Of a stretch of 64,000 nt of DNA, positions 213 through 63,993 are shown piece after piece. The notes under the pieces are model-generated. The model saw nothing but the letters and a program-made list of their open reading frames with translations. It was not told where the DNA came from and did no database searches. The position numbers were made by a program, and so were the translations under genes. The stretch covers positions 61,866 to 125,865 of IMG/VR virus record IMGVR_UViG_3300046092_000062; one strand, given 5' to 3'. Origin of the DNA: a virus. Position 1 is the stretch's first letter, and the number at the start of each line of letters is the position of its first letter.

Positions 213-384
213 AAATTTCATATCCTGTACGAACGGCAGCTCTTGCTTTTCAGGATAATCTCGTGTAAAATGTTTAACACAAGAGAAGCTCTTAGCATCG
301 GAATAAGTTCCGTTGCCGAGTTTAAGTAATTCATCGAATCCAGGATTGGGTTTGCTCATACTGTATTTAACACAAGGAAACAAA

Positions 385-888
385 ATGCCCTGGATCCAAA
401 ACGTAGCACGTAGCGATGTCACTAAAGGGTTTCACATCAACCCCGGTGATAACGCTATGTTGATTCAAATCGTTGACTGCGGCAGCGAATTTCCTACTCC
501 CCTTTACAAGTTTAAAGAAGCTCATCAATTTGAGTTTTTAGATGTAGAGGAAAAGGACTACGTTCTTGAAGAAGAAATGAAGTGCAGTCACGAACAAGCC
601 GCAGAGCTAGTTCGTTTGTTGCAACATGCACTAGAGAATCGCATGAACGTTATTGTTCATTGCCATGCTGGTGTTTGCCGCAGCGGTGCAGTATGTGAAG
701 TTGGAGTCATGCTTGGCTTTGATGACACTGAAGCATTTCGTGCTCCTAACTTGCTAGTCAAGCATCGCATGATGAAGCAGCTGGGTTGGACGTATGATGA
801 GAACGAAGAGCCAACGATCAATGGTCAACCATATCAATACAGCGCAGGCGGGATCATTTTACCCCCAAGTCACGAAGGTGATATTTAA
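385..888 (+). CDS. protein-tyrosine / dual-specificity phosphatase (CX5R P-loop HCHAGVCRSG)
   Basis: The P-loop signature sits in ORF 313..888. The start was moved to the ATG at 385, which has an AAGGA ribosome-binding site, because position 313 is a TTG inside the preceding intergenic region. Confidence 0.65.
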   Translation: MPWIQNVARSDVTKGFHINPGDNAMLIQIVDCGSEFPTPLYKFKEAHQFEFLDVEEKDYVLEEEMKCSHEQAAELVRLLQHALENRMNVIVHCHAGVCRSGAVCEVGVMLGFDDTEAFRAPNLLVKHRMMKQLGWTYDENEEPTINGQPYQYSAGGIILPPSHEGDI

Positions 889-1229
889 TGCACAAAATCT
901 ACGTTGATGTTCCGTACGAGTACAACTATGTGTACCGAGTTGATCATGATGAGTCCACTGGTCCAGAAGTGCTAGCAAGGGACTTTGGGGTAAAGTTTGC
1001 GTTTATTTGCAACGCTGCTCAGAGATTCAGCAACCCCGAAGGACTTGGAGCAGTGGGCAATACAGGTGATGCTCACGTGGTATGGCTTGAGTCGGAGAAA
1101 GACGAATTGTTCTTTCTAATCAAGTCCGGATTTACCAAGTTAAATAAAGATGTAGTTGAACTATTCTTGAAAGCAAGATTGGAAGCTATGCGATTAAAAG
1201 AGAGGAATGATTATGAAACGTGTAATTGA
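888..1229 (+). CDS. hypothetical protein
   Basis: ORF track entry. Its ATG overlaps the upstream stop (TAATG). Confidence 0.5.
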   Translation: MHKIYVDVPYEYNYVYRVDHDESTGPEVLARDFGVKFAFICNAAQRFSNPEGLGAVGNTGDAHVVWLESEKDELFFLIKSGFTKLNKDVVELFLKARLEAMRLKERNDYETCN

Positions 1230-1884
1230 GGTCCGTGCCGCAGAAGGTGGCGAAGACAGTAAACTATTTGTAAAAGACTTGGCACAAGCCTACATTAAAT
1301 TTGCACACAGCAAAGGCTGAACTAGCCGCCTGATAAATGAGTATCTTGGCGAAGTTCATATCTTAGTCGAGGGTGCTGATTTATCTGGCTTATACAACGA
1401 GCCAGGTGGACACCGAATACAGCGTGTACCACCAACAGAGCGAAAAGGACGAGTACATACCAGTACTGTTACTGTCGCTGTTGTTGATCCAAGTGTGCCG
1501 ACCACTACCATAAAAGAATCTGATTTGCGGATTGAATGGTACAGCGGAACAGGCGCAGGAGGACAACACCGTAACAAGCACCAAAACAGTGCCCGCGTTA
1601 CGCACATACCTAGTGGCACAGTAGTAACAGCACAGTGTCGCAGTAGGGAAAATAGTTTGGCAGAAGCTATGCAAACTATTCGAGAAAGAGTTGACAAGAT
1701 AACAAAAGACTGTTATAATAACAACTTAGCAAGCAACAGAAAGCAACAAGTTGGTTCAGGGATGCGAGGAGACAAAATTCGCACATACCGCTTTCAGGAC
1801 GATACAGTTAAAGATCACGTAAGTGACAAGACTGCAAGCGTTAAGAAAGTGTTAGCCGGCAACTTTGACTTACTTTGGAATTAA
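1213..1884 (+). CDS. class-I release-factor-like protein (domains 2-4 only; PxT = PPT and GGQ motifs) with an in-frame TGA at 1318..1320
   Basis: An ATG at 1213 has a GAGGAA ribosome-binding site. The reading frame is continuous through to 1884 except for one TGA. The residues after the TGA (GGHRIQRVPPTERKGRVHTS...SGTGAGGQHRNK) align to RF1 domain 3. The TGA sits where RF1 has a conserved Trp (compare ...AEARRWRVEI). Confidence 0.55.
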
Positions 1885-2992: not shown

Positions 2993-3068
2993 GCCTTTAT
3001 AGCTCAGTTGGTAGAGCAGAGGATTGAAAATCCTTGTGTCACTGGTTCGAATCCGGTTAGAGGCACCA
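2993..3068 (+). tRNA. tRNA-Phe(GAA)
   Basis: The sequence is close to E. coli tRNA-Phe. It has acceptor stem GCCTTTA/TAGAGGC, D arm GCTCAGTTGGTAGAGC, anticodon arm GAGGA-TTGAAAA-TCCTT, T arm CTGGTTCGAATCCGG, and an encoded CCA end. Confidence 0.85.
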
Positions 3069-3083
3069 AATTATAGGAGTAGT

Positions 3084-4307
3084 ATGGCAAAGTTTTCGGA
3101 GAAGTTCTTCTGTCCTGCACCGTGGACAATGTTATACTATCATGCCAACTCTCCTAGTCCGTGCCACATGATTAAAAATTTAGAGATGGAAGCGACCCCA
3201 TCTGAATATTTTAATAGCGAATGGCTTAAGAATATAAAACAAGAAATGCAGCAAGGGATTGTTCCTGCTGCATGTTCTGGTTGTAAAGAGCGTGAGAGTC
3301 ATGGACTAAAAAGCACACGCGGCGCTATTTGGAATTACTATAATGTAGGACCTGAGCCCGAGTACGAAGATCAATGGTTCGCAAACAAGTTTACCGCAGA
3401 CAGCCCAACCGTTCCAAAAAGAATTGAGCTTAGGTTTAGTAATCTATGTAATATGAAATGCAGGATGTGCGACGAAACATCTAGTTCCAGCTTTGCAGCA
3501 GAAAAAATTGAACATAAGATTAAACCAGACAAAAACGGAAGTCATCTTGAGCATAGCGTGATACCCATCACAAAGATAGAAAACAATTCAATTGATGGCC
3601 TCATGGATACTGCCTTTCTAGCGTCAGTTCGAAAGGTATGTTTAACCGGTGGCGAACCATTTTTAATAAAAGAATATTACAGCTATCTAGATTACTTAAT
3701 AGACAACGGTTTTAACAAAACACTAGACGTAGAATTGTTTACAAATTGCAGTGTATATAATCCATTGTTTATTGATCGACTTAGTAAATTTAAAACAGTT
3801 CAAATGGTGATGAGCATCGATGCTGTGGGCAAAGCGGCTGAATATATTCGTAGTGGAACCGATTGGCCTAAAGTGGAAGCCAATGTGCTTCGACTAAATC
3901 AACTAGCAGCTCCATTTAAAATGGAAGTTACAACTGCCATATCTGCATACAGCCTAATGGACTTTGCAGAGACTGCACGATTTCTAATGAGGTTGTACAC
4001 CGAAAACAACACCATTGGCGTAAAATGTTACAACGTAACTTCGCCTCCGGGTATGCACTTTAATAATCTGCCTAAGCCGTTGAGAATACAAGCAATAGAT
4101 CAAATCGACAAGGCAGTAGAGATTCTAACAGCACCAAACTATTTGGTACTAGTTACAGAGTTGTTAAACGTGAAACACGCATTGACTACTTCGTCCCCGG
4201 ATACACCACTGGCATTCTTTGACTATACTAAGAAGTACGACACCATTAGGGGAGAGTCGTTTGCGGAAGTGTTTTTAACATCTCCTGACAGCACAGATTA
4301 CTTGTAA
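3084..4307 (+). CDS. radical SAM enzyme (CNMKCRMC = CX3CX2C) with an N-terminal Cys-rich domain; paralog of 49128..50156
   Basis: ORF 3024..4307 trimmed to the ATG at 3084, which follows an AGGAG ribosome-binding site and lies after tRNA-Phe. The radical-SAM cysteine triad is present. Confidence 0.7.
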   Translation: MAKFSEKFFCPAPWTMLYYHANSPSPCHMIKNLEMEATPSEYFNSEWLKNIKQEMQQGIVPAACSGCKERESHGLKSTRGAIWNYYNVGPEPEYEDQWFANKFTADSPTVPKRIELRFSNLCNMKCRMCDETSSSSFAAEKIEHKIKPDKNGSHLEHSVIPITKIENNSIDGLMDTAFLASVRKVCLTGGEPFLIKEYYSYLDYLIDNGFNKTLDVELFTNCSVYNPLFIDRLSKFKTVQMVMSIDAVGKAAEYIRSGTDWPKVEANVLRLNQLAAPFKMEVTTAISAYSLMDFAETARFLMRLYTENNTIGVKCYNVTSPPGMHFNNLPKPLRIQAIDQIDKAVEILTAPNYLVLVTELLNVKHALTTSSPDTPLAFFDYTKKYDTIRGESFAEVFLTSPDSTDYL

Positions 4308-5406: not shown

Positions 5407-6318
5407 ATGCAACATAATTTTTTACCATGTAAATATCCAATTATTTGTGCCCCGATGAATAGAGTGTCGGACGTTAAGCTAGCACTTGCAGTTCATAGAG
5501 CTGGGTGCTTGCCGAGCCTTGTGGTCCACAATCATGATGAATCTGAATTAGCTAACGATGTGGCTAAGATTGTGAACGAAATGAAAGAGTTCACAGAGCT
5601 GTCGGGATCAAGCGATTTTATACTTGCACTTAGATCAGATTTTTTATTAAAAGATACCAAGCTGCTCCCTGCGATGTTAAAGTACAGGCCTGCGTATGTT
5701 GAATTCTTTGACAATATTGATTGGTCTGACATAAAGGTGGTCAACCTTATTAAGCTGCTTAGAACATACAGAATTAAAATAATCTATAAAATACTTGCAC
5801 CTAGAATATTGGGCAAGTTAGTGGAATTTGTTGACGCTATTGACGTTAAGGGCCCTGATGCCGCTGCCCGTGTGAATACCACAACTACTACTAGTTTAGT
5901 AGATCGGATTAAGCAACTGAAATCCGCTAATCCACATTTGCACATTATTGCATCTGGTGGTATGTCATCGCAACAGGATGTGCAGGCATGTATTGACGCT
6001 GGCGCAAGTGCAGTGGCATTGGGCACAGTATTTGCCATGTCAGAAGAGTCGTCGATTTCAGTTGAGACAAAAATGAAAATGATTGAATCAACATTCTCAC
6101 AAGTTGTGAACATTGGCGAAGCCCAACAAAATGCGTTAGTGTTTACAAACGAAAAAGATGTTGACGGCAACCACACTGTGGGACTAGAACTTGGTATAAA
6201 AAGCCCAGTCGCTGGTCATGTGTTTGTGGGGAAAGCAATTGATTCAATTGACTCAATTAAAACAGTGGAAACAATCGTGTCGGAGCTAACTGGGGTAACT
6301 GATGCAAAAACCCGATGA
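5407..6318 (+). CDS. nitronate monooxygenase / FabK-like FMN-dependent TIM-barrel oxidoreductase
   Basis: Motifs PIICAPM and SDVKLALAV..AG, plus IIASGG...GASAVALGTVF, are typical of the NMO/2-nitropropane dioxygenase family. Confidence 0.6.
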   Translation: MQHNFLPCKYPIICAPMNRVSDVKLALAVHRAGCLPSLVVHNHDESELANDVAKIVNEMKEFTELSGSSDFILALRSDFLLKDTKLLPAMLKYRPAYVEFFDNIDWSDIKVVNLIKLLRTYRIKIIYKILAPRILGKLVEFVDAIDVKGPDAAARVNTTTTTSLVDRIKQLKSANPHLHIIASGGMSSQQDVQACIDAGASAVALGTVFAMSEESSISVETKMKMIESTFSQVVNIGEAQQNALVFTNEKDVDGNHTVGLELGIKSPVAGHVFVGKAIDSIDSIKTVETIVSELTGVTDAKTR

Positions 6319-8657: not shown

Positions 8658-8733
8658 TAAGTATAATGCGGATGTAGCTCAGCTGGTAGAGCACAACGTT
8701 GCCAACGTCGAGGTCGTCGGTTCGAACCCGATC
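8658..8733 (+). tRNA. tRNA-Gly(GCC)
   Basis: Close to E. coli tRNA-Gly(GCC). Acceptor stem GCGGATG/CATCCGC, anticodon loop TTGCCAA, T arm GTCGG-TTCGAAC-CCGAT, discriminator U followed by CCA. Confidence 0.8.
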
Positions 8734-8738
8734 ATCCG

Positions 8739-8815
8739 CTCCATAAATGGCTCTCTAGTTCCAATTGGCAGAACATCGGATTCCAAATCCGAGTGTTGGG
8801 GGTTCGAATCCCTCG
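8739..8815 (+). tRNA. tRNA-Trp(CCA), D stem GTTC/GAAC, i.e. a U11-A24 pair
   Basis: Acceptor stem GGCTCTC/GGGGGTC, anticodon arm TCGGA-TTCCAAA-TCCGA, T arm GGGGG-TTCGAAT-CCCTC, discriminator G followed by CCA. Confidence 0.8.
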
Positions 8816-8820
8816 GGGGT

Positions 8821-9280
8821 CGCCAATATAATGAAATCAAAATTCTCCGATTCCCAATTACGCACAATCACGAAAGTGGTTACATACCGCGTGATTATCA
8901 CATGTAGTCACATCATCAATGGGTTTATTGTTAGTGGTAGTCTTGCTCTTGGATTGCAAATTGCAGGCCTAGCAGCAGTAATTAACAGTTTGTTATTTTG
9001 GCTACACGAGCGCATGTGGAATAGGCTACAATGGAAACGTCTCCATTTAAACAGTTCTACGTTCGTAGAAACCAATCCTAGAAGCATCAGTAAGATATTA
9101 ACTTGGCGCATTTTCTCAATGTCTAGTAATTTTCTCATCCCTTACTTGATAACTGGATCATGGGGATCAGCAGCGGCATTCCTTGGGATAGCAGTAATAG
9201 TTAACATGGCTCTATACTATCTACATGAACGAGTGTGGAACATAGTTAAGTGGGGTAAACAGGTCAACGGCCTTTGGTGA
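8821..9280 (+). CDS. small membrane protein with an internal tandem duplication (two LxxLHER(M/V)WN repeats)
   Basis: ORF 8765..9280 trimmed to the ATG at 8821, after tRNA-Trp. The protein has two hydrophobic repeats. Confidence 0.5.
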
Positions 9281-9604: not shown

Positions 9605-10240
9605 ATGGGGACCAAGTGGTCCGCGGTTGAAAAACAGAATTACATGGCTAACCCTTTTATGAATACATTAACGTTTCAGACCCCGGTACGTATAGTTAAT
9701 AACTGGGATAAAACCACACAAGTAGCAAAGCACTGCATCGATCTAGTAAAGAGTCAATCGGCCAGTATCACTAGGGAATACAAGTACAGCGATTACGGAT
9801 ATCACTATGAACTAGGATCAACTGGCACAGTTAGTCACATCACTAACGGTAGTGCAGAATGGTATTCAGTGACTGGTAAGCTAATAGAATCTACCATGCG
9901 CTTTTTGCCGCTAATGCTAGATGACCTAGCAGACCTTGACCCTACGTTTGCTAGCATTAACTACATGGTGGGCAATGGCGCAGAGCATAGGGATCACGAA
10001 AGTCAGCAAACTGGGTTCAATTATTTTTTTGCTGATTGTGACAGCACTACCTACGCAAGAAACGCAGACATCTGCGAATCCTATCCTAGCGTAAAAGACA
10101 CAGGGTGGATCCTTGATATCCAACAACTACACAGCATCTCAAATACAAACGAACGCATTTGGTTTAACCTTAGATTTGGTAAACCCTTTGCATATTGCAG
10201 AGATTGGTTTGCAGATCATTTGGTATTAACTTATGAATAA
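9605..10240 (+). CDS. hypothetical protein
   Basis: ORF track entry. Confidence 0.5.
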   Translation: MGTKWSAVEKQNYMANPFMNTLTFQTPVRIVNNWDKTTQVAKHCIDLVKSQSASITREYKYSDYGYHYELGSTGTVSHITNGSAEWYSVTGKLIESTMRFLPLMLDDLADLDPTFASINYMVGNGAEHRDHESQQTGFNYFFADCDSTTYARNADICESYPSVKDTGWILDIQQLHSISNTNERIWFNLRFGKPFAYCRDWFADHLVLTYE

Positions 10241-11408
10241 AATTATCTCAATTGAGCCTGCAATCGATCCAGTCAATCGTCCTACATTTTTGTTGGACTG
10301 GGAACTAACAATGAAGTGCAATTTGGATTGCGACTACTGCTCGACTGGCATTGAGTACGGTGGTCACGACAACAGCACAGCACATCCTCCTAAAGACGAA
10401 TGCTTAAAAACCATTGACTTCATGTTTGCTTATGCAGACAAGTACATGCAGCTAAAGCCCAAATGGCAGCGCATGGTGGTTCTCAATGTATACGGCGGCG
10501 AAAGTATATTTCATCCAGACATTGTTGAGATCCTAGAGCAGGTGCGAGCAAGACACACATACGATTGGCCATTGACTGTTACCTGCACAAGTAACGCAGT
10601 GGCTGGTAAGAATCTTTGGGAAAAGGTTGCAAACTTAATTGATGAGTTTACCGTTAGTTTTCACAGCAGTGCATTGCCTAAACAGAGACAGCAAGTACTA
10701 GACAACATACTTTATAATAAGGCTATCGGCAGGCGCCAAAAGGTGGTGTTTGTGATGCACAACGATCCTGTTTTGTGGGATATTAGCCAACAAGCTATTG
10801 AGTTTTGTAAAACACACGATGTTAGGTATGTAGTTAAAGCAAACGACACCCCTACACCTCAGTGGCAGTATAACAAAGAACAGTTTATTTACTTTCAAGA
10901 TTACTACAAGTCACGCACACCAGCTAAGAGTAGGGATGCTCTAACAAAGGCGCTGGATGCAGTGGAAACTGACACAGTTGGCATGGGTAAGGTCGGTCGA
11001 GGTTGTTGTGGTGGCCGAAAGCTATGCACTAACCAAGACCTACAACACCCAACAGCCTTTGTACCACATGCAGATTTCATGGGTTGGAGTTGCAGTGTTA
11101 ACTGGTACTTCTTGTACATTAAACAGATCAATGGCGATGTGTACACAAACAAGGATTGCCGTATGCGCTTTGATGGTACAGTTGGTCCAATTGGTAATTT
11201 GTCAAATGGTAATCTTATACTAGAACAAGTGCAGAAAAACATTGACAACAAAGCCATGCCTGTTATACAATGTGCTAGAACAAGATGTATATGCGGTTAC
11301 TGTGCTCCAAAAGCGCAAGACCCAAAAGATTTTGAAGCTATTATGGATAAACACATAGTTGACAAGCAAGTCAAATTTGTTTATAATAACAGCTTAGATG
11401 ATAAGTAA
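10233..11408 (+). CDS. radical SAM enzyme (CNLDCDYC) with a C-terminal Cys-rich SPASM/twitch-like region
   Basis: The CX3CX2C triad sits near the N-terminus, and several CxxC/CxC clusters lie in the last 150 residues. Confidence 0.7.
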   Translation: MNKIISIEPAIDPVNRPTFLLDWELTMKCNLDCDYCSTGIEYGGHDNSTAHPPKDECLKTIDFMFAYADKYMQLKPKWQRMVVLNVYGGESIFHPDIVEILEQVRARHTYDWPLTVTCTSNAVAGKNLWEKVANLIDEFTVSFHSSALPKQRQQVLDNILYNKAIGRRQKVVFVMHNDPVLWDISQQAIEFCKTHDVRYVVKANDTPTPQWQYNKEQFIYFQDYYKSRTPAKSRDALTKALDAVETDTVGMGKVGRGCCGGRKLCTNQDLQHPTAFVPHADFMGWSCSVNWYFLYIKQINGDVYTNKDCRMRFDGTVGPIGNLSNGNLILEQVQKNIDNKAMPVIQCARTRCICGYCAPKAQDPKDFEAIMDKHIVDKQVKFVYNNSLDDK

Positions 11409-11976: not shown

Positions 11977-12602
11977 ATACGTATAAGAAGTTCTTATACA
12001 CATGCACATAAATGCGTAGGCCACGCAGATATGGTTGGATTCATAGCTTGGGCTATTGCCCAGGTTGGCAGGTTCGAAACCTGTGAGTGTGCAGTTGTAT
12101 AAGAATTTAGGGCAGTTTAATGTCCTGCAAAGAGTATGGTTCGCCCAGCTTGATGCGAAGAATAACTGTGGTGACACAGCCAAAGGAGGTATGCCTACAT
12201 AACTCCGCTAGCAATAGTTCATTTAGACAAGCCTGCTCACTCCTGTGAGGGAGCGTTCACTCAGCGACGGGTGGATGTAACAGTGACGCAAAGTGCATAG
12301 GGAAGAACGTTTGCTTACAAGCCTGAGATTGCATCAAGGGGAACTTGAGTAGATGGAAAGTAACAGGTGGTGCTGACTTCTATGCGAAACCAACTTTGTT
12401 AATTGGTATGAGAAAGGGTAGTGTATTGGTTCGAAGGGTTGCACCTAAGAGCTCGTATGCAGTTTTAGTGGTTGGTGGACGTAGTAATACGAACATTGGT
12501 CGCAAAAGACGACTGAGTAGCTCGCAAGGCAAAAGGTACGTGGTGTGTTGTATTGTGTATTCCAAAAGATTATGCAGCAACTGAGTCAGCACATCGCAGT
12601 AG

Positions 12603-12674
12603 GTTGATATAGTTCATTGGTAGAACATCTGTCTCTTAAACAGAATGCGGTGGGTTCAATTCCCACTATCATTA
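12603..12674 (+). tRNA. tRNA-Lys(CTT) (CCA end not encoded)
   Basis: D arm GTTC-ATTGGTA-GAAC, anticodon arm TCTGT-CTCTTAA-ACAGA, T arm GTGGG-TTCAATT-CCCAC. The acceptor stem GTTGATA/TATCATT has one U-U mismatch. Confidence 0.55.
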
Positions 12675-13359
12675 CAAAACGCAAAGACTGACTCGGTCGT
12701 ATGTGAAAAGCATCTAATACTTGAGCCGCAAGGTAATCAAGTCAGACGTAACTCGCAAGGTGAAATCTGTTTATGCAGGAAGTTTCGTAGCTACTTAGCG
12801 GTGGTGAATGGCTCTAAAGGTCAACGGGATAGAAAGCGTAGAATAGCATACGGCGACAAGACTACTGCCTGTCTTTAAAAACGGCGATGCTGACAGCAGA
12901 CTAGACTACTATGCAAATAGGGTTTAGTGGAAGTCGGAAGAAAGTAGACTCGCAAGGTTTACAATAATGTCCGAGGTGTTGTTAGGTTAGGATGTATTCT
13001 CAGTCCGCCAACTTATATGCAAACACATTAGTAAAAGTCTGTAAAAGGACGAAGCAACTGACTCTGTAATAGGAGCTGTTTGCTCAGTGTGTTTACATAT
13101 AAGTATGCTTTGATGGTTAAAGTTGGATAGGTAGTGGGTAGCTTGTGAAATCATAGTAGCAAGTCCACAGCAACCCAAACGGTAGAAGCAGCTTATTTGA
13201 AAGCACATTTGTTCCTGAAAGATTTTACGGTTTGGATGGTTCAGCAAATGTGTTTCCAAATAAGAATTTGGTGATTGTGTGGAGCTAAGGCGATTCGCTG
13301 GACTATGAAGCACGACGAGAGCGTTGAACTTGAAATAGGTTCAACCACCAGACTAATAT

Positions 13360-26410: not shown

Positions 26411-26698
26411 ATGCGTGTAGAAACCAAAGTTAAAATCATTATTTGGACTGTAACATTAGTTACTACTTTTGTTGTAGGCTTCTTAATGCTGCTAATGATT
26501 AACGAAGCATTTGGCACAGAAACCCCAGTGGGCGAGCCCTATGTAGCTAGTTATAGTTACTGCGCCGTTACTACACACGGTGTTAAGGGTCAAAGCTGGT
26601 GTAGCCAGTACAAAACAGGTCACGAAATGCGCCAAAAAACCCACATAAAAGGCCTGTTTTTTGACGGTACAGGCGATCATTTGGTTGTCCAGAAATGA
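26411..26698 (+). CDS. small membrane/secreted protein
   Basis: ORF track entry with an N-terminal transmembrane segment. Confidence 0.45.
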   Translation: MRVETKVKIIIWTVTLVTTFVVGFLMLLMINEAFGTETPVGEPYVASYSYCAVTTHGVKGQSWCSQYKTGHEMRQKTHIKGLFFDGTGDHLVVQK

Positions 26699-26713
26699 TT
26701 TTGGTTGTATAAT
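26685..26713 (+). promoter_or_regulatory. early promoter cassette TTGTCC-AGAAATGA..-TATAAT followed by the leader ACATAGCAAGCAAA
   Basis: A member of the family. Confidence 0.5.
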
Positions 26714-26746
26714 AACTACATAGCAAGCAAACAACAGGAGCAGAAA

Positions 26747-27172
26747 ATGACAGCAACTACACAACGTGATCCAAAGTGGGACGAGCGCATGGAAGTTCAA
26801 GCACAGCACATTCGCTGGCGCGAACAGTTTTACGGTGTGAAGTTTAACCTGCTCCAAAAGGCTTACGCTCACTTCCGTATGTTCTTTGTCAATAAACACA
26901 CAATCATTGGTGCTAACTGCACATTGGCTGACTACTGCGACAAGTACAAGACAGTTGATGGTCTGCGTGAAGCCATTGGTGACACTCCTAACACTGACAA
27001 GCGCAAAGCATACTTCCATGTTTTGACAGACGCTGGCAAGTTTGCTGCTTGGGCTATCCGTGTACCGTTTTTGTTGGTTGCACTGGCATTTGTCATTGTG
27101 CGCGAAGTGGCTGACTTGTGCGTAACAGGCGTACAAAAAGTGACCCAAATGTTGCCTGGTTCAATCGACTAA
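26747..27172 (+). CDS. hypothetical protein
   Basis: ORF 26705..27172 trimmed to the ATG at 26747, which has an ACAGGAG ribosome-binding site. Position 26705 lies inside the promoter. Confidence 0.5.
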   Translation: MTATTQRDPKWDERMEVQAQHIRWREQFYGVKFNLLQKAYAHFRMFFVNKHTIIGANCTLADYCDKYKTVDGLREAIGDTPNTDKRKAYFHVLTDAGKFAAWAIRVPFLLVALAFVIVREVADLCVTGVQKVTQMLPGSID

Positions 27173-40970: not shown

Positions 40971-41465
40971 ATGCAGACTACCAAAATATATTTATATGAT
41001 AACACGGTGACGGTTCAAATAATGGACCCCACCATCTTCACCACAAGGAACAGACCTGTGTACAGTCGCCCTATTAAAGTCTATCAAGGTATAGACAACC
41101 CAATCCAAGTTTTAGTAAAGAACCAGGACCAGAAAGCTGCAAACATTGCAGGCTATGCAGTCCAAGCTGATATCCAAGACCCAACTAACCAAGTGACGGT
41201 TAGCAGCTATGCTGTCACATTCTCTAATGTGTCGTTGGGACAAGGTACATTTACTATTGACAAAAATACTGTTAGCAGCTTAGAGCAACGTTTCTACAAG
41301 TTAACCTTTAAAACAATTAAAACAAGTGACAATTCAGAGACACCTGCGTATGTAGATGACAACTACGGCGCACCACTAGACCTGCAAGTGCTACCTGCAT
41401 ATTATTCAGTAACTGAGCCTAGCCCAACTGTTGATAATAGTGTAATTGATGGCGGAGATATTTAA
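40971..41465 (+). CDS. hypothetical structural protein
   Basis: ORF track entry immediately upstream of the fiber genes. Confidence 0.45.
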   Translation: MQTTKIYLYDNTVTVQIMDPTIFTTRNRPVYSRPIKVYQGIDNPIQVLVKNQDQKAANIAGYAVQADIQDPTNQVTVSSYAVTFSNVSLGQGTFTIDKNTVSSLEQRFYKLTFKTIKTSDNSETPAYVDDNYGAPLDLQVLPAYYSVTEPSPTVDNSVIDGGDI

Positions 41466-42952
41466 TGACTATAGCAAATGTAAATGTAAGACAAATCTTA
41501 CTTAAAAAGGGCAACACTGCTCGAAGCCAAAACTACACCGGTGCAATTGGTGAAATTACCCTAGATACAGATTTAAACAGTATCAGAGTACACAATGGCG
41601 TTACAGCAGGCGGCGTTAATATACTTGCGACTCAAGCGCAAATCAACGCTCTAACATCTAGTATTAGTACTATCACTGGATTAGATGCCAACTTAGTTGC
41701 GAACATTAGCTCGTTGCTAGCCAATGCAGCAAGTCAACAGACCACGATCAATTCTTTACTTGCCAACGCAGCAAGCCAACAAACACAGATTGCTAATATT
41801 ACCACCGGTACTGCAACCTTTGGAAACTTGTTACCAAGTGCTAACGTAACATACAGTTTAGGTAGCCCGACACAGCAGTGGAAAGACTTGTACGTTAGCA
41901 GCAACACTATCTACATTGCTGGTATCCCGTTGCGAGTAGACACCAATGGAAATTTAACCATTAACGGCAACAGTGTAAGCGGTGGTCCGAGTGGAACGGT
42001 ATTGCCGCCGGACGCAAATGGCGTGCTAACTAACCTCAATGGGGGACTGGCGTGGGGCGATCCTAATAGACTTGGCTATAACGACACCTTAATCTATATG
42101 TCGGGGTATGATTCTAATCTTATTTTCCAGCGTGGACAAACACGCTACGGTGAAATTAAAGCAGGTCCGGAATTCTTTGGACTAGAAAACAGCGGCGAAA
42201 TTACCATTAACACCGGCGCCACATGGTCCTTTGCACAGGATGGTACATTAACATTCCCTGACAATCTCACAGTTGTTGACAGCGTTATTGGTCGTCGACT
42301 AGAAGAAGTTAACGGCGAAGCAGTGGATGCAGTAGGATCAAAGTTGACATTTACTGATACTGATGTACAAATGGAGGCATACGCCGATCCAGACGGACTT
42401 AACAACATAGCTCATGCTCGCTTGTTTGCTAATGCTACCTCAGCAATTATGGAAGCATCGATTGAAGACGTCGCTGGCGTAACTTTTGGACGAATAACAG
42501 TAGCTGGTGGTGGCATAGACATGTCACTAAGTGATGGTGTACTCGACAATTCGTGGGACTTTGCTTTAGATGGGACTACATTATTACCCAATGGTGGTCG
42601 AGTAGTTTTTGGTGCGCAAAACGGCGATTCGTACATCCAAGCAGGGCAAGGCTTCCACATCAGTAGCCGCGAAGGCATTAGTCTTGAAGCAGTGGATGCA
42701 ACAGATCCAGAGAATCCAGTTACACAAGGATGGTACTTTAGTCCAGATAGCAGAATAACATTCCCTGATGGTACAAAGCAAGGTACTGCATACGTCCACA
42801 ATAATGTCAACTTAGATGGCGGAGGAGCTAGCACAGTGTACGAAGTAGAAACAGCATACGCAGATGGCGGCTTTGCTAGCATTAGAAGTTTTAGTGAAAC
42901 GTTTGATGGCAACGAAGGCAACAATTACATATTAGATGGTGGTAGAGCATAA
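41465..42952 (+). CDS. tail-fiber-like structural protein (internal SLLANAASQQT(T/Q)I duplication)
   Basis: A Gly/Ser/Thr/Asn-rich beta-structure-like composition, in a run of ATGA-linked fiber genes. Confidence 0.5.
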   Translation: MTIANVNVRQILLKKGNTARSQNYTGAIGEITLDTDLNSIRVHNGVTAGGVNILATQAQINALTSSISTITGLDANLVANISSLLANAASQQTTINSLLANAASQQTQIANITTGTATFGNLLPSANVTYSLGSPTQQWKDLYVSSNTIYIAGIPLRVDTNGNLTINGNSVSGGPSGTVLPPDANGVLTNLNGGLAWGDPNRLGYNDTLIYMSGYDSNLIFQRGQTRYGEIKAGPEFFGLENSGEITINTGATWSFAQDGTLTFPDNLTVVDSVIGRRLEEVNGEAVDAVGSKLTFTDTDVQMEAYADPDGLNNIAHARLFANATSAIMEASIEDVAGVTFGRITVAGGGIDMSLSDGVLDNSWDFALDGTTLLPNGGRVVFGAQNGDSYIQAGQGFHISSREGISLEAVDATDPENPVTQGWYFSPDSRITFPDGTKQGTAYVHNNVNLDGGGASTVYEVETAYADGGFASIRSFSETFDGNEGNNYILDGGRA

Positions 42953-43982: not shown

Positions 43983-45425
43983 ATGGCCTCAAAGATACAA
44001 ATTAGACGAGACACAGCGGATAACTGGACTAACACAAACCCAGTTTTAGCTCAAGGTGAGCCGGGATTAGAAACAGACACACGTAAGATCAAGTACGGCG
44101 ACGGCAACTCCTATTGGGTTGACTTATCGTATTCGGCTGCTGGTGTTGACATCGGCAACGATGGACAAATCACTATCGGCGAAGGTGCAGGTGCCGATGG
44201 TACAGGAACAAATGCAATCGCAATCGGTACAGACGCTGGTGTAAACCAACAGTATGTAGCTATTGCTATCGGTCATGCTGCGGGTAACAATAACCAAGGC
44301 GGCCAAGCTATTGCTATCGGTCGTAGTGCAGGTAACAATAACCAAGACATGAACGCGATTGCTATCGGTCGATATGCTGGTAATCAAGACCAACAAGAAG
44401 AAACTATTGCTATCGGTCGTTATGCTGGTAGAACAAACCAACGTTTCCACGCTATTGCCATTGGCGCACAAGCTGGCGAATCTGACCAGTACTGGGACGC
44501 TATTGCCATTGGTCGCAGTGCAGGTAACAACGGACAAGATCATCAAACTATTGCTATCGGACAACGTGCTGGACAAGACTACCAAGCGAGTCAAGCCATT
44601 GCTATTGGTGCATACGCAGGCAATGACACCCAAGGACAGAACTCTATTGCGATTGGTGCTTATGCAGGGCAGAACAGCCAATACAATAACAGCATTGTGA
44701 TTAACGCCACTGGCAGCTTACTAGACAGCGACGATACTGGTACGTTTATTGTTAAGCCAGTTCGTAGCACGGCCGATATGACTGGCTTTACCCCAATGGG
44801 ATACAATGCAGATACTGGCGAAATTGCTGCCAGTGCCCAGGGTACTATTTTAGCGACTAACACAGTTAGTGGCGGCGAAGGTACTATAATTGGCCGCGCA
44901 ACTGCAATTAGCTGGAACCCAACTAGCGGGTCCAACCTAACTCCTGGTACGTATGATTTTACATTGGAATTCAATGGCGGCCTGTTTTTACGTGCAGACA
45001 TATCGGAGTCTGGAGACATTGCGCTTAGTATTCTTGACGGCGGATACGGGCATACTGTTACAAATAACACTGTAATTAATGGTACAACAATCGGTGGATC
45101 TAGTCCAGCAAATGATGTAACCGTTACTATCGACGCAGTAACTGATATTTCAGATTACACTGCATTAGATTTAACCAAATCTATTAACAAGTTGAACGAC
45201 GGCTACTATACACTAGCAGACGGCACAGAAGGTCAAATTATGTATTTGGCATCACTTAGCAGCATTACTAACCCATCTAGTGTACGAGTAACGGTGGCCA
45301 ATGGTCGCGGTAACGGCAGTTCATGGCAAGACGGTTGGCTATTTCCGTTTAACGGCAGCGGAGTATGCACACTGCTATTTACAGATGGTTCATGGCAGAT
45401 CGTTAGCGGCGGAATCTGGGATTAA
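43983..45425 (+). CDS. tail fiber / receptor-binding protein with the same N-terminal anchor and about 11 tandem 15-aa (AIAIGxxAGxxxQ) repeats
   Basis: The N-terminus is MASKIQIRRDTADNW...GEPGLETDTRKIKYGDG, and the repeats are obvious in the translation. Confidence 0.6.
   Translation: MASKIQIRRDTADNWTNTNPVLAQGEPGLETDTRKIKYGDGNSYWVDLSYSAAGVDIGNDGQITIGEGAGADGTGTNAIAIGTDAGVNQQYVAIAIGHAAGNNNQGGQAIAIGRSAGNNNQDMNAIAIGRYAGNQDQQEETIAIGRYAGRTNQRFHAIAIGAQAGESDQYWDAIAIGRSAGNNGQDHQTIAIGQRAGQDYQASQAIAIGAYAGNDTQGQNSIAIGAYAGQNSQYNNSIVINATGSLLDSDDTGTFIVKPVRSTADMTGFTPMGYNADTGEIAASAQGTILATNTVSGGEGTIIGRATAISWNPTSGSNLTPGTYDFTLEFNGGLFLRADISESGDIALSILDGGYGHTVTNNTVINGTTIGGSSPANDVTVTIDAVTDISDYTALDLTKSINKLNDGYYTLADGTEGQIMYLASLSSITNPSSVRVTVANGRGNGSSWQDGWLFPFNGSGVCTLLFTDGSWQIVSGGIWD
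44211..44700 (+). repeat. about 11 tandem 45-bp coding repeats (ATTGCTATCGGTCG...GCTGGTAA...)
   Basis: Direct repeats are visible in the DNA and as the AIAIG(R/A)xAG motif in the protein. Confidence 0.7.
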
Positions 45426-59451: not shown

Positions 59452-59844
59452 ATGGCATATTCAGACAAGGTAATTGATCACTATGAGAACCCACGTAATG
59501 TGGGTTCTTTTGCGAGTGAGGACAGCGATGTTGGCACTGGTATGGTTGGCGCACCCGCTTGTGGTGACGTAATGAAATTACAAATAAAGGTAGACTCGAA
59601 TGGAATTATCACCGATGCACGTTTTAAGACTTATGGTTGCGGGAGTGCTATTGCAAGCAGCTCATTGGTTACTGAGTGGGTTAAAGGAAAAAGTCTGTCC
59701 GAAGCAGCAAGCATCACAAACAGTGAGATCGCAGGCGAGCTAGCTCTACCACCAGTTAAAATCCATTGTAGCATCTTAGCTGAGGATGCAATCAAAGCAG
59801 CAATTGAAAATTATCGAGCAAAGAATGATTCTAGTTTACAGTGA
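59452..59844 (+). CDS. iscU: IscU/NifU-type Fe-S cluster assembly scaffold
   Basis: The sequence is almost colinear with E. coli IscU as recalled (MAYS(D/E)KVIDHYENPRNVGSF...GAPACGDVMKLQIKV...FKTYGCGSAIASSSLVTEWVKGKSL...LPPVKIHCSILAEDAIKAAI), including the three cluster-ligand Cys residues. Confidence 0.85.
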   Translation: MAYSDKVIDHYENPRNVGSFASEDSDVGTGMVGAPACGDVMKLQIKVDSNGIITDARFKTYGCGSAIASSSLVTEWVKGKSLSEAASITNSEIAGELALPPVKIHCSILAEDAIKAAIENYRAKNDSSLQ

Positions 59845-61683: not shown

Positions 61684-62394
61684 ATGTTAACATCACCATA
61701 TGAATATTCACCATTAAGCAGAGAAACACTAGAAGGCAAACGTCACTATTGTTTACCCGACGGCAGCAAAGTACCCTCTGTTACCACTATCCTAGACCGT
61801 ACCAAGAGCGAGGAAAAGAAAGCAGTCCTTGCTAACTGGAAAAAGCGGGTAGGCGAGCAGCAAGCACAAAAGATTGTGACAGAAGCTGCTAACCGCGGCA
61901 CACGTATGCACAGTTACCTAGAGCAGTACATCTTAACAGGTGACATGAAGGAACTGCCCTCTAATCCCTTTGCACAACCCAGCTGGTTTATGGCAGCAGA
62001 AGTTATCCTACAAGGACTACAACACGTAGACGAGTTTTGGGGCACAGAAGTTCCACTTTATTATAGTGGGTTATATGCAGGTACCACTGACTGCATTGGC
62101 GTATGGAAGGGCAAGCCTGCTATCCTTGACTTTAAGCAAACTAACAAGCCCAAGAAACGTGAGTGGATTGATGATTACTTTATTCAGCTAGCAGCATACG
62201 CCGCAGCACACAATCACACTCACGGCACAGAAATCAACACTGGCGTTATTTTAATGGCTCAACAGCCAACTACATTGCCCAATGGCGAACTAGACAAGCC
62301 GGTTTATACCGAATATGTAATCGAAGGCGATGAGTTTGCACATTGGGACAAAGAGTGGATGAAACGTGTAGAGATGTATTACCTGTCTAGCTAA
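61684..62394 (+). CDS. PD-(D/E)XK-superfamily nuclease (lambda-exonuclease/YqaJ-like; ILDFKQT motif)
   Basis: ORF 61576..62394 trimmed to the ATG at 61684. A D...(D/E)xK arrangement is present. Confidence 0.5.
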   Translation: MLTSPYEYSPLSRETLEGKRHYCLPDGSKVPSVTTILDRTKSEEKKAVLANWKKRVGEQQAQKIVTEAANRGTRMHSYLEQYILTGDMKELPSNPFAQPSWFMAAEVILQGLQHVDEFWGTEVPLYYSGLYAGTTDCIGVWKGKPAILDFKQTNKPKKREWIDDYFIQLAAYAAAHNHTHGTEINTGVILMAQQPTTLPNGELDKPVYTEYVIEGDEFAHWDKEWMKRVEMYYLSS

Positions 62395-62421: not shown

Positions 62422-63993
62422 ATGGCTGTCGTACAGATTTCACGCATTCAGGCACGTAGAGGCCTACAACAAGATTTACCAGCACTAGCAAGCGCAGAGT
62501 TTGCATGGAGTGTTGATACACGTAAGTTATACATCGGTAACGGCACGTTAGCCGAAGGCGCCCCTACTGAAGGGGCAACGGAGATTTTAACTCAGTATAC
62601 CGACTTTGCAGCAGTATTAAAGAATTACACGTTTAAAGGCAATGCTGGCGGATATACTGCACAGACTACTACAAGCCCGCTAAATCCTATCGTACGAACA
62701 ATTCAAGACAAACTTGACGATATTGTTAGTATCAAAGACTTTGGCGCAGTAGGCGATGGCGTAGCAGACGACACCGCAGCAATTAATCGTGCAATCCAAC
62801 AAATTTACTTGACTACACGATTGACAAATTATCCTCAAGTGCGTAGAACAATCTTCTTCCCTGCAGGTACCTACAACGTAACTGGAGAAACTATTTTAAT
62901 TCCGCCATATGCTCGTTTAATCGGGGACGGAATCGAAAGTACAATCATTAAACAAACAGACGGTACACAAACTTCCTTATTCCAGTTTACTGATAGCATG
63001 TACCAGACTGGCGCATCGCTAGGACAAAACAGTGCAACCCTGCCTGGTTACATCACAATCGAAAACATGACATTAGCAACAACTAGTGATCGTGATGTTG
63101 TTGCCATTGACAGCGCAGAACATGTGACATTCTTTGGCGTTGAGTTCTTGGGTAGCCTAAGCAGTCCGACTACTGCTGGTAGTCAAGCATACGCAGGCGT
63201 AAAAATCAATTCCTTTGCAGCGACTACTAAGAATATCAATTTTTGGTCGTGCAAATTTAAGAACACACGTTACGCAGCATTAAGCGATGACGCTAGCAGC
63301 GACGTGAGAATGAACGGGTGTTTATTTGTTGGCTTGTACAAAGGTCTAAAGCTAGGCCAGAACAGTGCAAGCGTTGCAACCACTCCAAGCAACTACAAAA
63401 TTCTAAACAGCATTTTTGCCAGTGTTGCAAACAATGCAATTGACTGCTATGCAAACGTCACTGGCGTACTAAGCAGCGGCAATCACTTCCTTGACGTCGG
63501 TAACAACTTTGCAGGTTCCGGATCTCCTGTGGCATCAATTATTTCGTTTGTGGCAAACGGTAACACCAGTGCCAACGATATGTTTGATCGCCCCGATGCT
63601 GACAACGTAACAGTTCCTCGATTGAGTTTTAACAATGCTAAAAACATTGCAATTCAGGCCAACGTTGGTCTAACAGTTGGTACATATACTATCGGCACTA
63701 GCGGATATGCAGTACTAGCAGACAATACACCAGCCTTTACACAATCAAACATTAACTTAGTCAACGGGTGTACACTAACATACTCAATGACTAGAGGTAC
63801 AGGTAAGCGTTTTGGTACGTTATTCTTTTCAAACGATGGCACCACTGGAGCAAACTTCATTGAGACTGCAACACAAACTGGTTCAAACATTGGAGTTACT
63901 ATCAGTGCAAGTAACGCTAACGTAATCACATATACAACAACTTCTACTGGCTCACCTGCCATCGTTAAATACAACATCAACTACTTCAGTTAA
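62422..63993 (+). CDS. tailspike with the conserved N-terminal anchor and a pectate-lyase-type right-handed beta-helix (DFGAVGDGVADDTAAINRAIQ)
   Basis: The N-terminus MAVVQISRIQARRGLQQDL..W.VDTRKLYIGNG matches the anchor of the other receptor-binding proteins. The pectate-lyase-3 signature is present. Confidence 0.6.
   Translation: MAVVQISRIQARRGLQQDLPALASAEFAWSVDTRKLYIGNGTLAEGAPTEGATEILTQYTDFAAVLKNYTFKGNAGGYTAQTTTSPLNPIVRTIQDKLDDIVSIKDFGAVGDGVADDTAAINRAIQQIYLTTRLTNYPQVRRTIFFPAGTYNVTGETILIPPYARLIGDGIESTIIKQTDGTQTSLFQFTDSMYQTGASLGQNSATLPGYITIENMTLATTSDRDVVAIDSAEHVTFFGVEFLGSLSSPTTAGSQAYAGVKINSFAATTKNINFWSCKFKNTRYAALSDDASSDVRMNGCLFVGLYKGLKLGQNSASVATTPSNYKILNSIFASVANNAIDCYANVTGVLSSGNHFLDVGNNFAGSGSPVASIISFVANGNTSANDMFDRPDADNVTVPRLSFNNAKNIAIQANVGLTVGTYTIGTSGYAVLADNTPAFTQSNINLVNGCTLTYSMTRGTGKRFGTLFFSNDGTTGANFIETATQTGSNIGVTISASNANVITYTTTSTGSPAIVKYNINYFS

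Follow-up and report, generated by a model that had tools for sequence, protein, structure and literature searches.

A 64,000-nucleotide (nt) stretch of an uncultured virus genome (IMG/VR record IMGVR_UViG_3300046092_000062, positions 61,866 to 125,865), called the window below, encodes an RF1-type release factor (RF) whose gene is interrupted by one in-frame UGA codon, together with a transfer RNA (tRNA) for tryptophan, tRNA-Trp(CCA). The UGA is conserved in every distinct relative of the gene that was collected and is followed by an RNA hairpin with compensatory changes in most of its base pairs. The reading favored here, with a probability of about 55%, is programmed UGA-to-Trp readthrough in the RF1-like gene, in which tRNA-Trp(CCA) would compete with the host RF2 and the phage-encoded tRNA-Trp would contribute without being dedicated to the task. 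The features on which this reading depends are as follows.

1213..1884, + strand: RF1-type release factor gene without domain 1, 223 codons, one in-frame TGA (Pfam, NCBIfam)
1318..1320, + strand: in-frame TGA, codon 36 of the RF1-like gene, proposed readthrough site (conserved in relatives)
1328..1389, + strand: RNA hairpin within the coding sequence, 5' arm 8 nt past the UGA (7-nt spacer)
8749..8825, + strand: tRNA-Trp(CCA) gene (ARAGORN; Rfam tRNA model), with U11 at 8759, A24 at 8773 and the anticodon at 8783-8785

A conserved in-frame UGA in an RF1-type gene

The product of 1213-1884 contains the Pfam domains PCRF and RF-1, and its best solved structures are those of RF1, with an E-value of 1e-42 compared with 1e-23 for RF2. 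Among the NCBIfam models, RF1 scores 197.7 bits and RF2 121 bits, with positions 107-334 of the 347 in the RF1 profile covered. The score lies below the equivalog cut-off of 400 for a full-length RF1, and since the match begins at profile position 107, the product is regarded as an RF1 without domain 1. At the PxT motif it has PPT, not an SPF-type sequence, and the GGQ motif is kept. The ATG start is conserved in 73 of 74 relatives, and the 35 N-terminal residues encoded ahead of the UGA carry the GG(E/D) helix tip, aligned with that of RF1, which we take to be needed for stop recognition.

Two scans of IMG/VR yielded 124 loci with the RF gene, representing 107 distinct gene sequences, some of them on contigs of 220-524 kb. 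A search for a cultured relative was negative, as megablast matched a tRNA-Leu only and tblastn with the RF product gave at most 41% identity.

A sequence-only reading of this DNA had noted a single in-frame TGA at 1318 in a release-factor-like gene. This TGA is real, and the frame continues past it. Every one of the distinct relatives (107/107) has TGA at codon 36, never TGG, TAA or TAG, and this holds down to ∼31% identity across the first 90 residues. The codons flanking it vary synonymously, purifying selection acts on the protein both before and after it, and wherever else an RF gene encodes Trp (one to three codons per gene) the codon is TGG. A single transition would turn this TGA into TGG and has done so in no relative, so it must be selected as a stop, and a codon selected as a stop points to a regulatory gate instead of a tolerated defect. 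Codon 36 aligns with a Trp in the RF1 of T. maritima and with a Phe in that of T. thermophilus. Several database proteins have Trp at position 36; these were traced to code-4 gene calls on short contigs, and their DNA reads TGA.

The base that follows the UGA is also constrained: among the 107 distinct sequences there are 69 with A, 29 with G and 9 with C at this place, and not one with U. When Leu comes right after the stop it is encoded by CUY in 9/9 cases; UUR makes up 32% of the Leu codons in those genes. In bacteria, U after the stop provides the strongest termination context, and a purine favors suppression. The next canonical in-frame start is 59 codons downstream. A frameshift of the prfB type was looked for and not found, the frame being unchanged at the UGA. 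The conservation of the UGA, the avoidance of U after it and the downstream hairpin were not part of the sequence-only reading.

An RNA hairpin downstream of the UGA

The hairpin alone has a folding energy of -25.6 kcal/mol, and the 101-nt context in which it lies folds with z = -2.93; across 94 relatives the mean folding z is -2.2. Covariation was counted on an ungapped alignment of 86 sequences. Changes on both sides were found at 20 of the 25 hairpin pairs, and the alignment contained 131 compensatory cells, compared with 57 ± 9 after shuffling (0/500). Alignment pair 25:70, for example, is AU in 40, GU in 23, GC in 20 and unpaired in 2 sequences. Synonymous variation is sharply lower at codons +1 to +24 after the UGA than at codons +28 to +53. 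The base of the hairpin is conserved and its apical part is variable. A short local hairpin (CGCC...GGCG) was considered in its place and set aside, having less covariation than the long one.

With the UGA in the ribosomal A site, a spacer of 7 nt would put the base of the hairpin at the mRNA entrance, which is the usual layout of a recoding stimulator. An Rfam search of 1280-1430 at a permissive threshold returned a chance microRNA match only, and no selenocysteine insertion sequence (SECIS) even at E = 10.

Genetic code and the expected decoder of the UGA

The 73 open reading frames (ORFs) of the window end with TAA in 45 cases, TGA in 26 and TAG in 2. Because TGA is a normal stop in 26/73 ORFs, the phage uses the standard code and its host must have RF2. 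Genome-wide recoding of TGA (code 4) was rejected, as the window is dense in coding sequence when read with the standard code and these 26 ORFs end in TGA. Further candidate sites of readthrough were inspected in the window, 26411-27172 among them, and nothing was found in their support. Past the TGA stops, a TAA or TAG comes next in frame in 20/26, at a median of 8 codons; the median after TAA is 14, both from few genes.

The tRNA genes of the relatives were taken from 10 kb of flank on each side of the RF gene, and other copies may exist elsewhere in those genomes. Neither the window nor the 124 family loci, which hold 1419 tRNA genes called by ARAGORN, yielded a tRNA(UCA), and no tRNA-Sec was found among these 1419. 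With no tRNA(UCA) found, the near-cognate tRNA-Trp(CCA) is the expected decoder, supplied by the host, the phage or both. The earlier proposal that tRNA-Trp is the natural candidate to decode this UGA is thus supported by the aromatic site and the lack of tRNA(UCA). Its extension to a dedicated suppressor is not, given how common A24 is and the relatives with G24 described below.

In the proposed mechanism, the ribosome would meet the UGA at codon 36, where host RF2 alone would be able to terminate. The hairpin 8 nt downstream and the non-U next base would weaken termination, and tRNA-Trp(CCA) would insert Trp via a C34-A mismatch, giving the full-length RF1-like protein. A low activity of RF2 relative to the UGA-reading tRNA-Trp would yield more of this protein. 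The phage tRNA-Trp would add to the decoding pool, being neither dedicated nor indispensable.

Several other tRNA genes of the family loci were recorded. L002, with a 97% identical RF gene, has a second, different tRNA-Trp(CCA) at L002:3519-3595, 6.5 kb upstream of the RF gene and past the left edge of the window. This gene has A1-U72, an all-Watson-Crick acceptor stem, C32 and U11-A24. L080 and L429 likewise have two tRNA-Trp genes. In a more distant clade, L411, L413, L414, L415, L416 and L417 carry an amber-suppressor-like tRNA(CUA) 4-8 kb downstream of their RF1-like genes, and L414 also carries a tRNA with the anticodon UUA. The CUA tRNAs are odd companions of an RF1-type factor, which is expected to read UAG.

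The phage tRNA-Trp and the Hirsh suppressor

The tRNA-Trp(CCA) is a genuine tRNA and belongs to the nearly complete set encoded by an uncultured jumbo phage. ARAGORN calls it together with 15 others, making 16 tRNA genes within the first 14.5 kb of the window, and 8749-8822 scores 51 bits with the Rfam tRNA model, whose gathering score is 29. The existence of the gene is therefore secure, and its position was corrected: the interval 8739-8815 given earlier is 10 nt too far left, and its first bases are part of a tRNA-Gly(GCC) at 8668-8743. The gene is 7.4 kb from the RF gene.

The cloverleaf folded by ARAGORN has the D stem GUUC/GAAC that had been read from the sequence, with the pairs G10-C25, U11-A24, U12-A23 and C13-G22 and a D loop of 9 nt. 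It also has U8, A9, A26 and the variable loop GUGUU. An anticodon stem of 4 base pairs (bp) was looked for and not found, as U27-A43 is paired and the stem has 5 bp; the anticodon loop is UUCCAAA. The gene has G73 and an encoded CCA end, and the CCA anticodon and the G73 discriminator are the main identity elements for tryptophanyl-tRNA synthetase (TrpRS). The acceptor stem GGCUCUC/GGGGGUC, formed by 8749-8755 with 8815-8821, includes three G.U pairs (2:71, 4:69, 6:67). The pattern NNCUCUC/GGGGGNN, with G.U at 4:69 and 6:67, is common to many tRNA-Trp genes of the family.

For comparison, the sequence of E. coli K-12 trpT was taken from NC_000913.3; its D stem, GUUC/GAGC, has U11.G24, so the contrast between phage and E. 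coli drawn from the sequence is correct. The change G24A is the Hirsh UGA suppressor, which acts via the tRNA hinge and lets tRNA-Trp(CCA) read UGA (PMC11805395; PMC13092985). The hinge of the window tRNA (positions 8-13, 22-26, 44-48) equals that of E. coli trpT except for G24A. In particular, positions 9-12, 23-26, 44 and 45, the hinge context in which the Hirsh mutation acts, are those of trpT save 24. Among ∼215 unique tRNA-Trp sampled, this exact hinge (U8 A9, GUUC/GAAC, A26, GUGUU) was found only in the window phage and its 97% relatives; the relative L036 has the same type of D arm with G24.

The window tRNA thus resembles the Hirsh suppressor (E. coli trpT G24A, su9) in keeping the CCA anticodon, in U11-A24 and in all hinge positions. 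It differs from su9, a laboratory mutant, in being a natural phage gene with three acceptor G.U pairs, G1-C72, U32, a different anticodon stem and an extra D-loop C, and its overall identity to E. coli trpT is ∼74%, as estimated from the alignment. Judged by the hinge, the phage tRNA-Trp probably reads UGA better than a wild-type tRNA-Trp of the E. coli kind.

How common U11-A24 is in tRNA-Trp

Genes for tRNA-Trp were searched with the pattern CTCCAAA, a gap of 13-15 nt and GTTCRANTC, which fixes C32 and the T loop, and were sampled among the matches listed from IMG/VR viral contigs (L083-L202) and bulk metagenome contigs (L289-L408). All sampled genes were folded with ARAGORN, positions 11:24, 9 and 27:43 were read, and unique sequences with a standard cloverleaf were counted. 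U11-A24 was found in 74/94 (79%) of the viral-contig tRNA-Trp, or 73/95 under another filter, and in 18/22 (82%) of those of the RF-carrying family, or 24/30 (80%) when a second viral scan was added. In the bulk metagenomes it was found in 22/86 (26%), with C-G in 63% and U.G in 1%.

At the level of sequences, which are interrelated, phage and metagenome tRNA-Trp differ in U11-A24 with an odds ratio of 8-10 and p ∼1e-10. In single-linkage clusters at 85% the contrast weakens to 43/57 vs 12/20, so the sequence-level odds ratio overstates the independence of the data. Non-Trp tRNAs of the same loci have U11-A24 in 35% of viral, 42% of RF-family and 21% of bulk metagenome cases, and only part of the phage tRNA-Trp excess is such a general drift of phage tRNAs toward U-A. 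The family itself is not enriched in A24 over other phages (24/30 vs 58/78, p = 0.62). With ∼79% of sampled phage tRNA-Trp carrying A24, the proposal that this base marks out the window tRNA as a suppressor fails; taken alone, A24 in one phage tRNA is ordinary.

A different pattern was seen at 27:43, where a mismatch leaves a 4-bp anticodon stem. Such mismatches occur in 12/30 family tRNA-Trp. Other phages have them less often (14/78, p = 0.02), and so do metagenomes (9/86, p = 7e-4); for the phage tRNA-Trp class the share is 21%, against 10% in bulk metagenomes. C9 occurs in 2/30 family tRNA-Trp. When A24, C9 and 27:43 mismatches are taken together as features associated with UGA reading, at least one is present in 27/30 family tRNA-Trp and 26/86 from bulk metagenomes, and in ∼83% of the sampled phage genes vs ∼30% of the cellular ones. 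In E. coli, a 4-bp anticodon stem raised UGA readthrough ∼2.5-fold, and an extra wild-type G24 tRNA-Trp had no effect (PMC13092985).

Four cultured phages were also examined. The tRNA-Trp of Salmonella jumbo phage SPLA1a has C-G at 11:24 and a C.A mismatch at 27:43, and that of Klebsiella phage Roth39 has U-A and a C.U mismatch. Caulobacter phage CcrBL1 and Mycobacterium phage Norbert both have C-G at 11:24 and a paired 27:43. These cases are anecdotal and fit a UGA-permissive phage tRNA-Trp in hosts with a trpT of the E. coli type.

Host of the phage

An enterobacterial host had been predicted from a phage-encoded IscU.

59452-59844, + strand: IscU iron-sulfur scaffold, phage-encoded, 79.5% protein and 69.7% DNA identity to E. 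coli IscU

The best genome matches of this protein, at 78-86%, come from Burkholderiales, other betaproteobacteria and several gammaproteobacterial orders, with the top match (86%) in a Burkholderiales genome bin. The matches are thus spread over beta- and gammaproteobacteria, the prediction is unsupported, and IscU is uninformative about the host beyond these two classes. The E. coli-like hinge of the tRNA is a weak hint, independent of IscU, at a possible gammaproteobacterial donor. As for the host's own tRNA-Trp, 74% of the tRNA-Trp from bulk metagenomes are without A24.

Alternative explanations

Several points weigh against programmed readthrough with a share for the phage tRNA-Trp. Both the readthrough and the full-length product are predictions from the sequence. 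For the hairpin, RNAalifold alone gives no consensus structure, and slid controls were lower than the hairpin but the +1 slide was fairly high. The residue aligned with the UGA in T. thermophilus RF1 is not Trp. The same UGA stands near a tRNA-Trp with U11.G24 in L036 and with C11-G24 in L061, L071, L415, L429 and L430, so A24 is not required; the flanks of L036, L415 and L430 are without a second tRNA-Trp that has A24 or a 27:43 mismatch, and L415 has C9. The effect of the Hirsh mutation was measured for a change from U.G to U-A in the body of the E. coli tRNA, whose acceptor and anticodon stems differ from those of the window tRNA. Since A24 is the default state in phages with or without an RF gene nearby, it need not reflect selection for UGA reading, and the host's own tRNA-Trp may already have it.

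In its strong version, the sequence-only reading made the phage tRNA a dedicated Hirsh-type opal suppressor, with an A24 that evolved for the UGA of the RF gene in an enterobacterial host whose own tRNA-Trp has G24. The exact Hirsh hinge, unique among the ∼215 tRNA-Trp sampled, the G24 of E. coli trpT and the conserved UGA at a Trp or aromatic position all speak for it, as does the finding that an extra wild-type G24 tRNA-Trp is without effect in E. coli, so that features of the tRNA matter (PMC13092985). This version is nevertheless unlikely, because A24 is no commoner in RF-carrying phages (p = 0.62), the UGA is kept beside G24 tRNAs and the enterobacterial host has no support. The tRNA-Trp is also just one component of a full tRNA set (tRNA-Trp genes being 46 of the 1419) with no positional link to the RF gene, and if it suppressed strongly, the 36% of phage genes with a TGA stop would be read through as well. 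The opposite view is that the phage tRNA-Trp serves UGG only and plays no part, the UGA being read by host tRNA-Trp with the help of the context and the hairpin. There is precedent in the coat gene of Q-beta, where UGA is read by the host tRNA-Trp. Some 30 other phage tRNAs serve their own codons, U11-A24 is common in phages (in 35-42% of their non-Trp tRNAs vs 21% in metagenomes), and the context and hairpin are conserved even where the nearby tRNA-Trp is without A24. What makes this view rather improbable, though less so than a dedicated suppressor, is that the hinge equals that of an experimentally proven suppressor, that a UGA-permissive feature is found in 27/30 family vs 26/86 metagenome tRNA-Trp, and that 27:43 mismatches are enriched in the family (12/30 vs 14/78, p = 0.02).

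Two further explanations deny the insertion of Trp altogether. One possibility is that a genuine stop divides the gene at the UGA; others are that the codon stands for selenocysteine, with the hairpin as its SECIS, or that a different near-cognate tRNA (for Cys, Arg or Gly) decodes it. A hairpin soon after the UGA is also the bacterial SECIS layout, and the window has genes for tRNA-Cys(GCA), tRNA-Arg(UCG) and tRNA-Gly(UCC). The hairpin apex is variable, however, and with no SECIS match in Rfam and no tRNA-Sec, selenocysteine is unlikely. The homologous residues are Trp or Phe, not Cys, and misreading of UGA in bacteria is mainly by tRNA-Trp. Against a split gene stand the RF1-aligned GG(E/D) tip in the 35 N-terminal residues and the 59 codons without an in-frame start. 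Taken together, a meaning of the UGA other than Trp is very improbable. A pseudogene or assembly error, with a TGA that has no function, finds nothing in its favor beyond the presence of a stop codon, and it is refuted by the TGA in 107/107 sequences across many independent metagenomes and by purifying selection on both sides.

Relation to known systems

A known release factor gene with an in-frame UGA is prfB, which encodes RF2 and relies on a +1 frameshift aided by a Shine-Dalgarno-like element upstream. The phage gene resembles prfB in combining such a UGA with a yield that would be set by RF2 activity; unlike prfB, it involves no change of frame and is of the RF1 type, so any regulation would act across factors and not on the factor itself. 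In the coat gene of Q-beta, a leaky UGA read as Trp gives protein A1. There too a phage product depends on tRNA-Trp(CCA) decoding a UGA in a host that uses the standard code, often with a purine after the stop. The site described here differs from that of Q-beta in lying in a translation-factor gene, in its conserved downstream hairpin and in the phage-borne tRNA-Trp. The gag-pol genes of murine leukemia virus show stop readthrough with a 3' stimulatory structure. They share with the phage gene a leaky stop and a stable RNA structure ∼8 nt later; the phage gene belongs to a bacterial system, has a hairpin instead of a pseudoknot and would use UGA-to-Trp decoding. To our knowledge, no readthrough site with a stimulatory structure on its 3' side has been described in bacteria or phages, where such an arrangement is hardly documented; in eukaryotic viruses it is well known.

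Among tRNAs, that of Bacillus subtilis for Trp has a natural A24 and has been linked to leaky UGA. Like the window tRNA it is a wild-type tRNA-Trp(CCA) with U11-A24 in a setting where UGA is still a stop, the difference being that the gene described here is encoded by a phage. A Blastocrithidia-like tRNA-Trp(CCA) with a 4-bp anticodon stem offers another non-anticodon change that raises UGA reading (PMC13092985), and this form is found in 12/30 family tRNA-Trp, in SPLA1a and in Roth39. Phage-encoded RF1 together with UGA-to-Trp decoding is also found in the TGA-recoded Jade phages, which carry modules of RF1, TrpRS and tRNA(UCA) (bioRxiv 10.1101/2021.08.26.457843). The Jade phages recode many genes with a UCA suppressor and have an uninterrupted standard-code RF1, whereas here only the RF gene is interrupted and TGA stops 26/73 ORFs. 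In a search of the literature, no description was found of a UGA-interrupted phage RF1 or of the D-arm and anticodon-stem features of phage tRNA-Trp.

Other features of the window

Two ORFs upstream of the RF gene, 313-888 (+) encodes a dual-specificity/tyrosine-phosphatase-like protein, for which the Pfam matches are mostly below gathering scores and only Tc-R-P is above the cut-off. The tRNA region contains a GOLLD RNA.

12540-13006, + strand: GOLLD RNA, full length (Rfam RF02032, 198.8 bits vs gathering score 150)

A tRNA-Lys(CUU) at 12603-12675 is embedded in this RNA, inside the phage tRNA region. In all, four tRNA-Lys genes (two CUU, two UUU) are present in the 64 kb, at 1985-2347 and 12603-12675; the one at 1985-2059 is an ARAGORN call only, with no Rfam match. 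Two radical-SAM proteins and an NMO/IMPDH-like oxidoreductase are encoded among the tRNA genes (3024-4307, 10233-11408 and 5407-6318, +), and these may be tRNA or nucleotide modification enzymes. Three proteins (41465-42952, 43983-45425 and 62422-63993, +) have an Mtd_N (major tropism determinant N-terminal) domain at their start, one of them with a pectate-lyase-like domain, and are probably tail fibers or depolymerases.

Biological significance

A wider interpretation, which is offered tentatively and is considerably less probable than readthrough itself, is a termination-balancing circuit in a large family of jumbo phages, in which RF2 is set against a UGA-permissive phage tRNA-Trp. A mini-RF1 reading UAA and UAG would be made only on readthrough of the conserved gate of UGA plus hairpin, and this gate would respond to the balance of host RF2 and that tRNA-Trp. 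More broadly, phage tRNA-Trp(CCA) might form a natural UGA-leaky class, which is held with the same reserve; two of the cultured phages, both enterobacterial, agree with it. The proposed readthrough signal sits in a release factor gene, a class already known from prfB for self-regulation through an in-frame UGA. If the readthrough is real, these phages would tune host termination with a self-contained sensor, and the site would be a natural, sequence-defined bacterial readthrough signal that could be tested in E. coli. A bias of phage tRNA-Trp toward UGA-reading forms, which is possible, would be relevant both to the reasons for which phages carry tRNAs and to the origin of UGA-to-Trp recoding.

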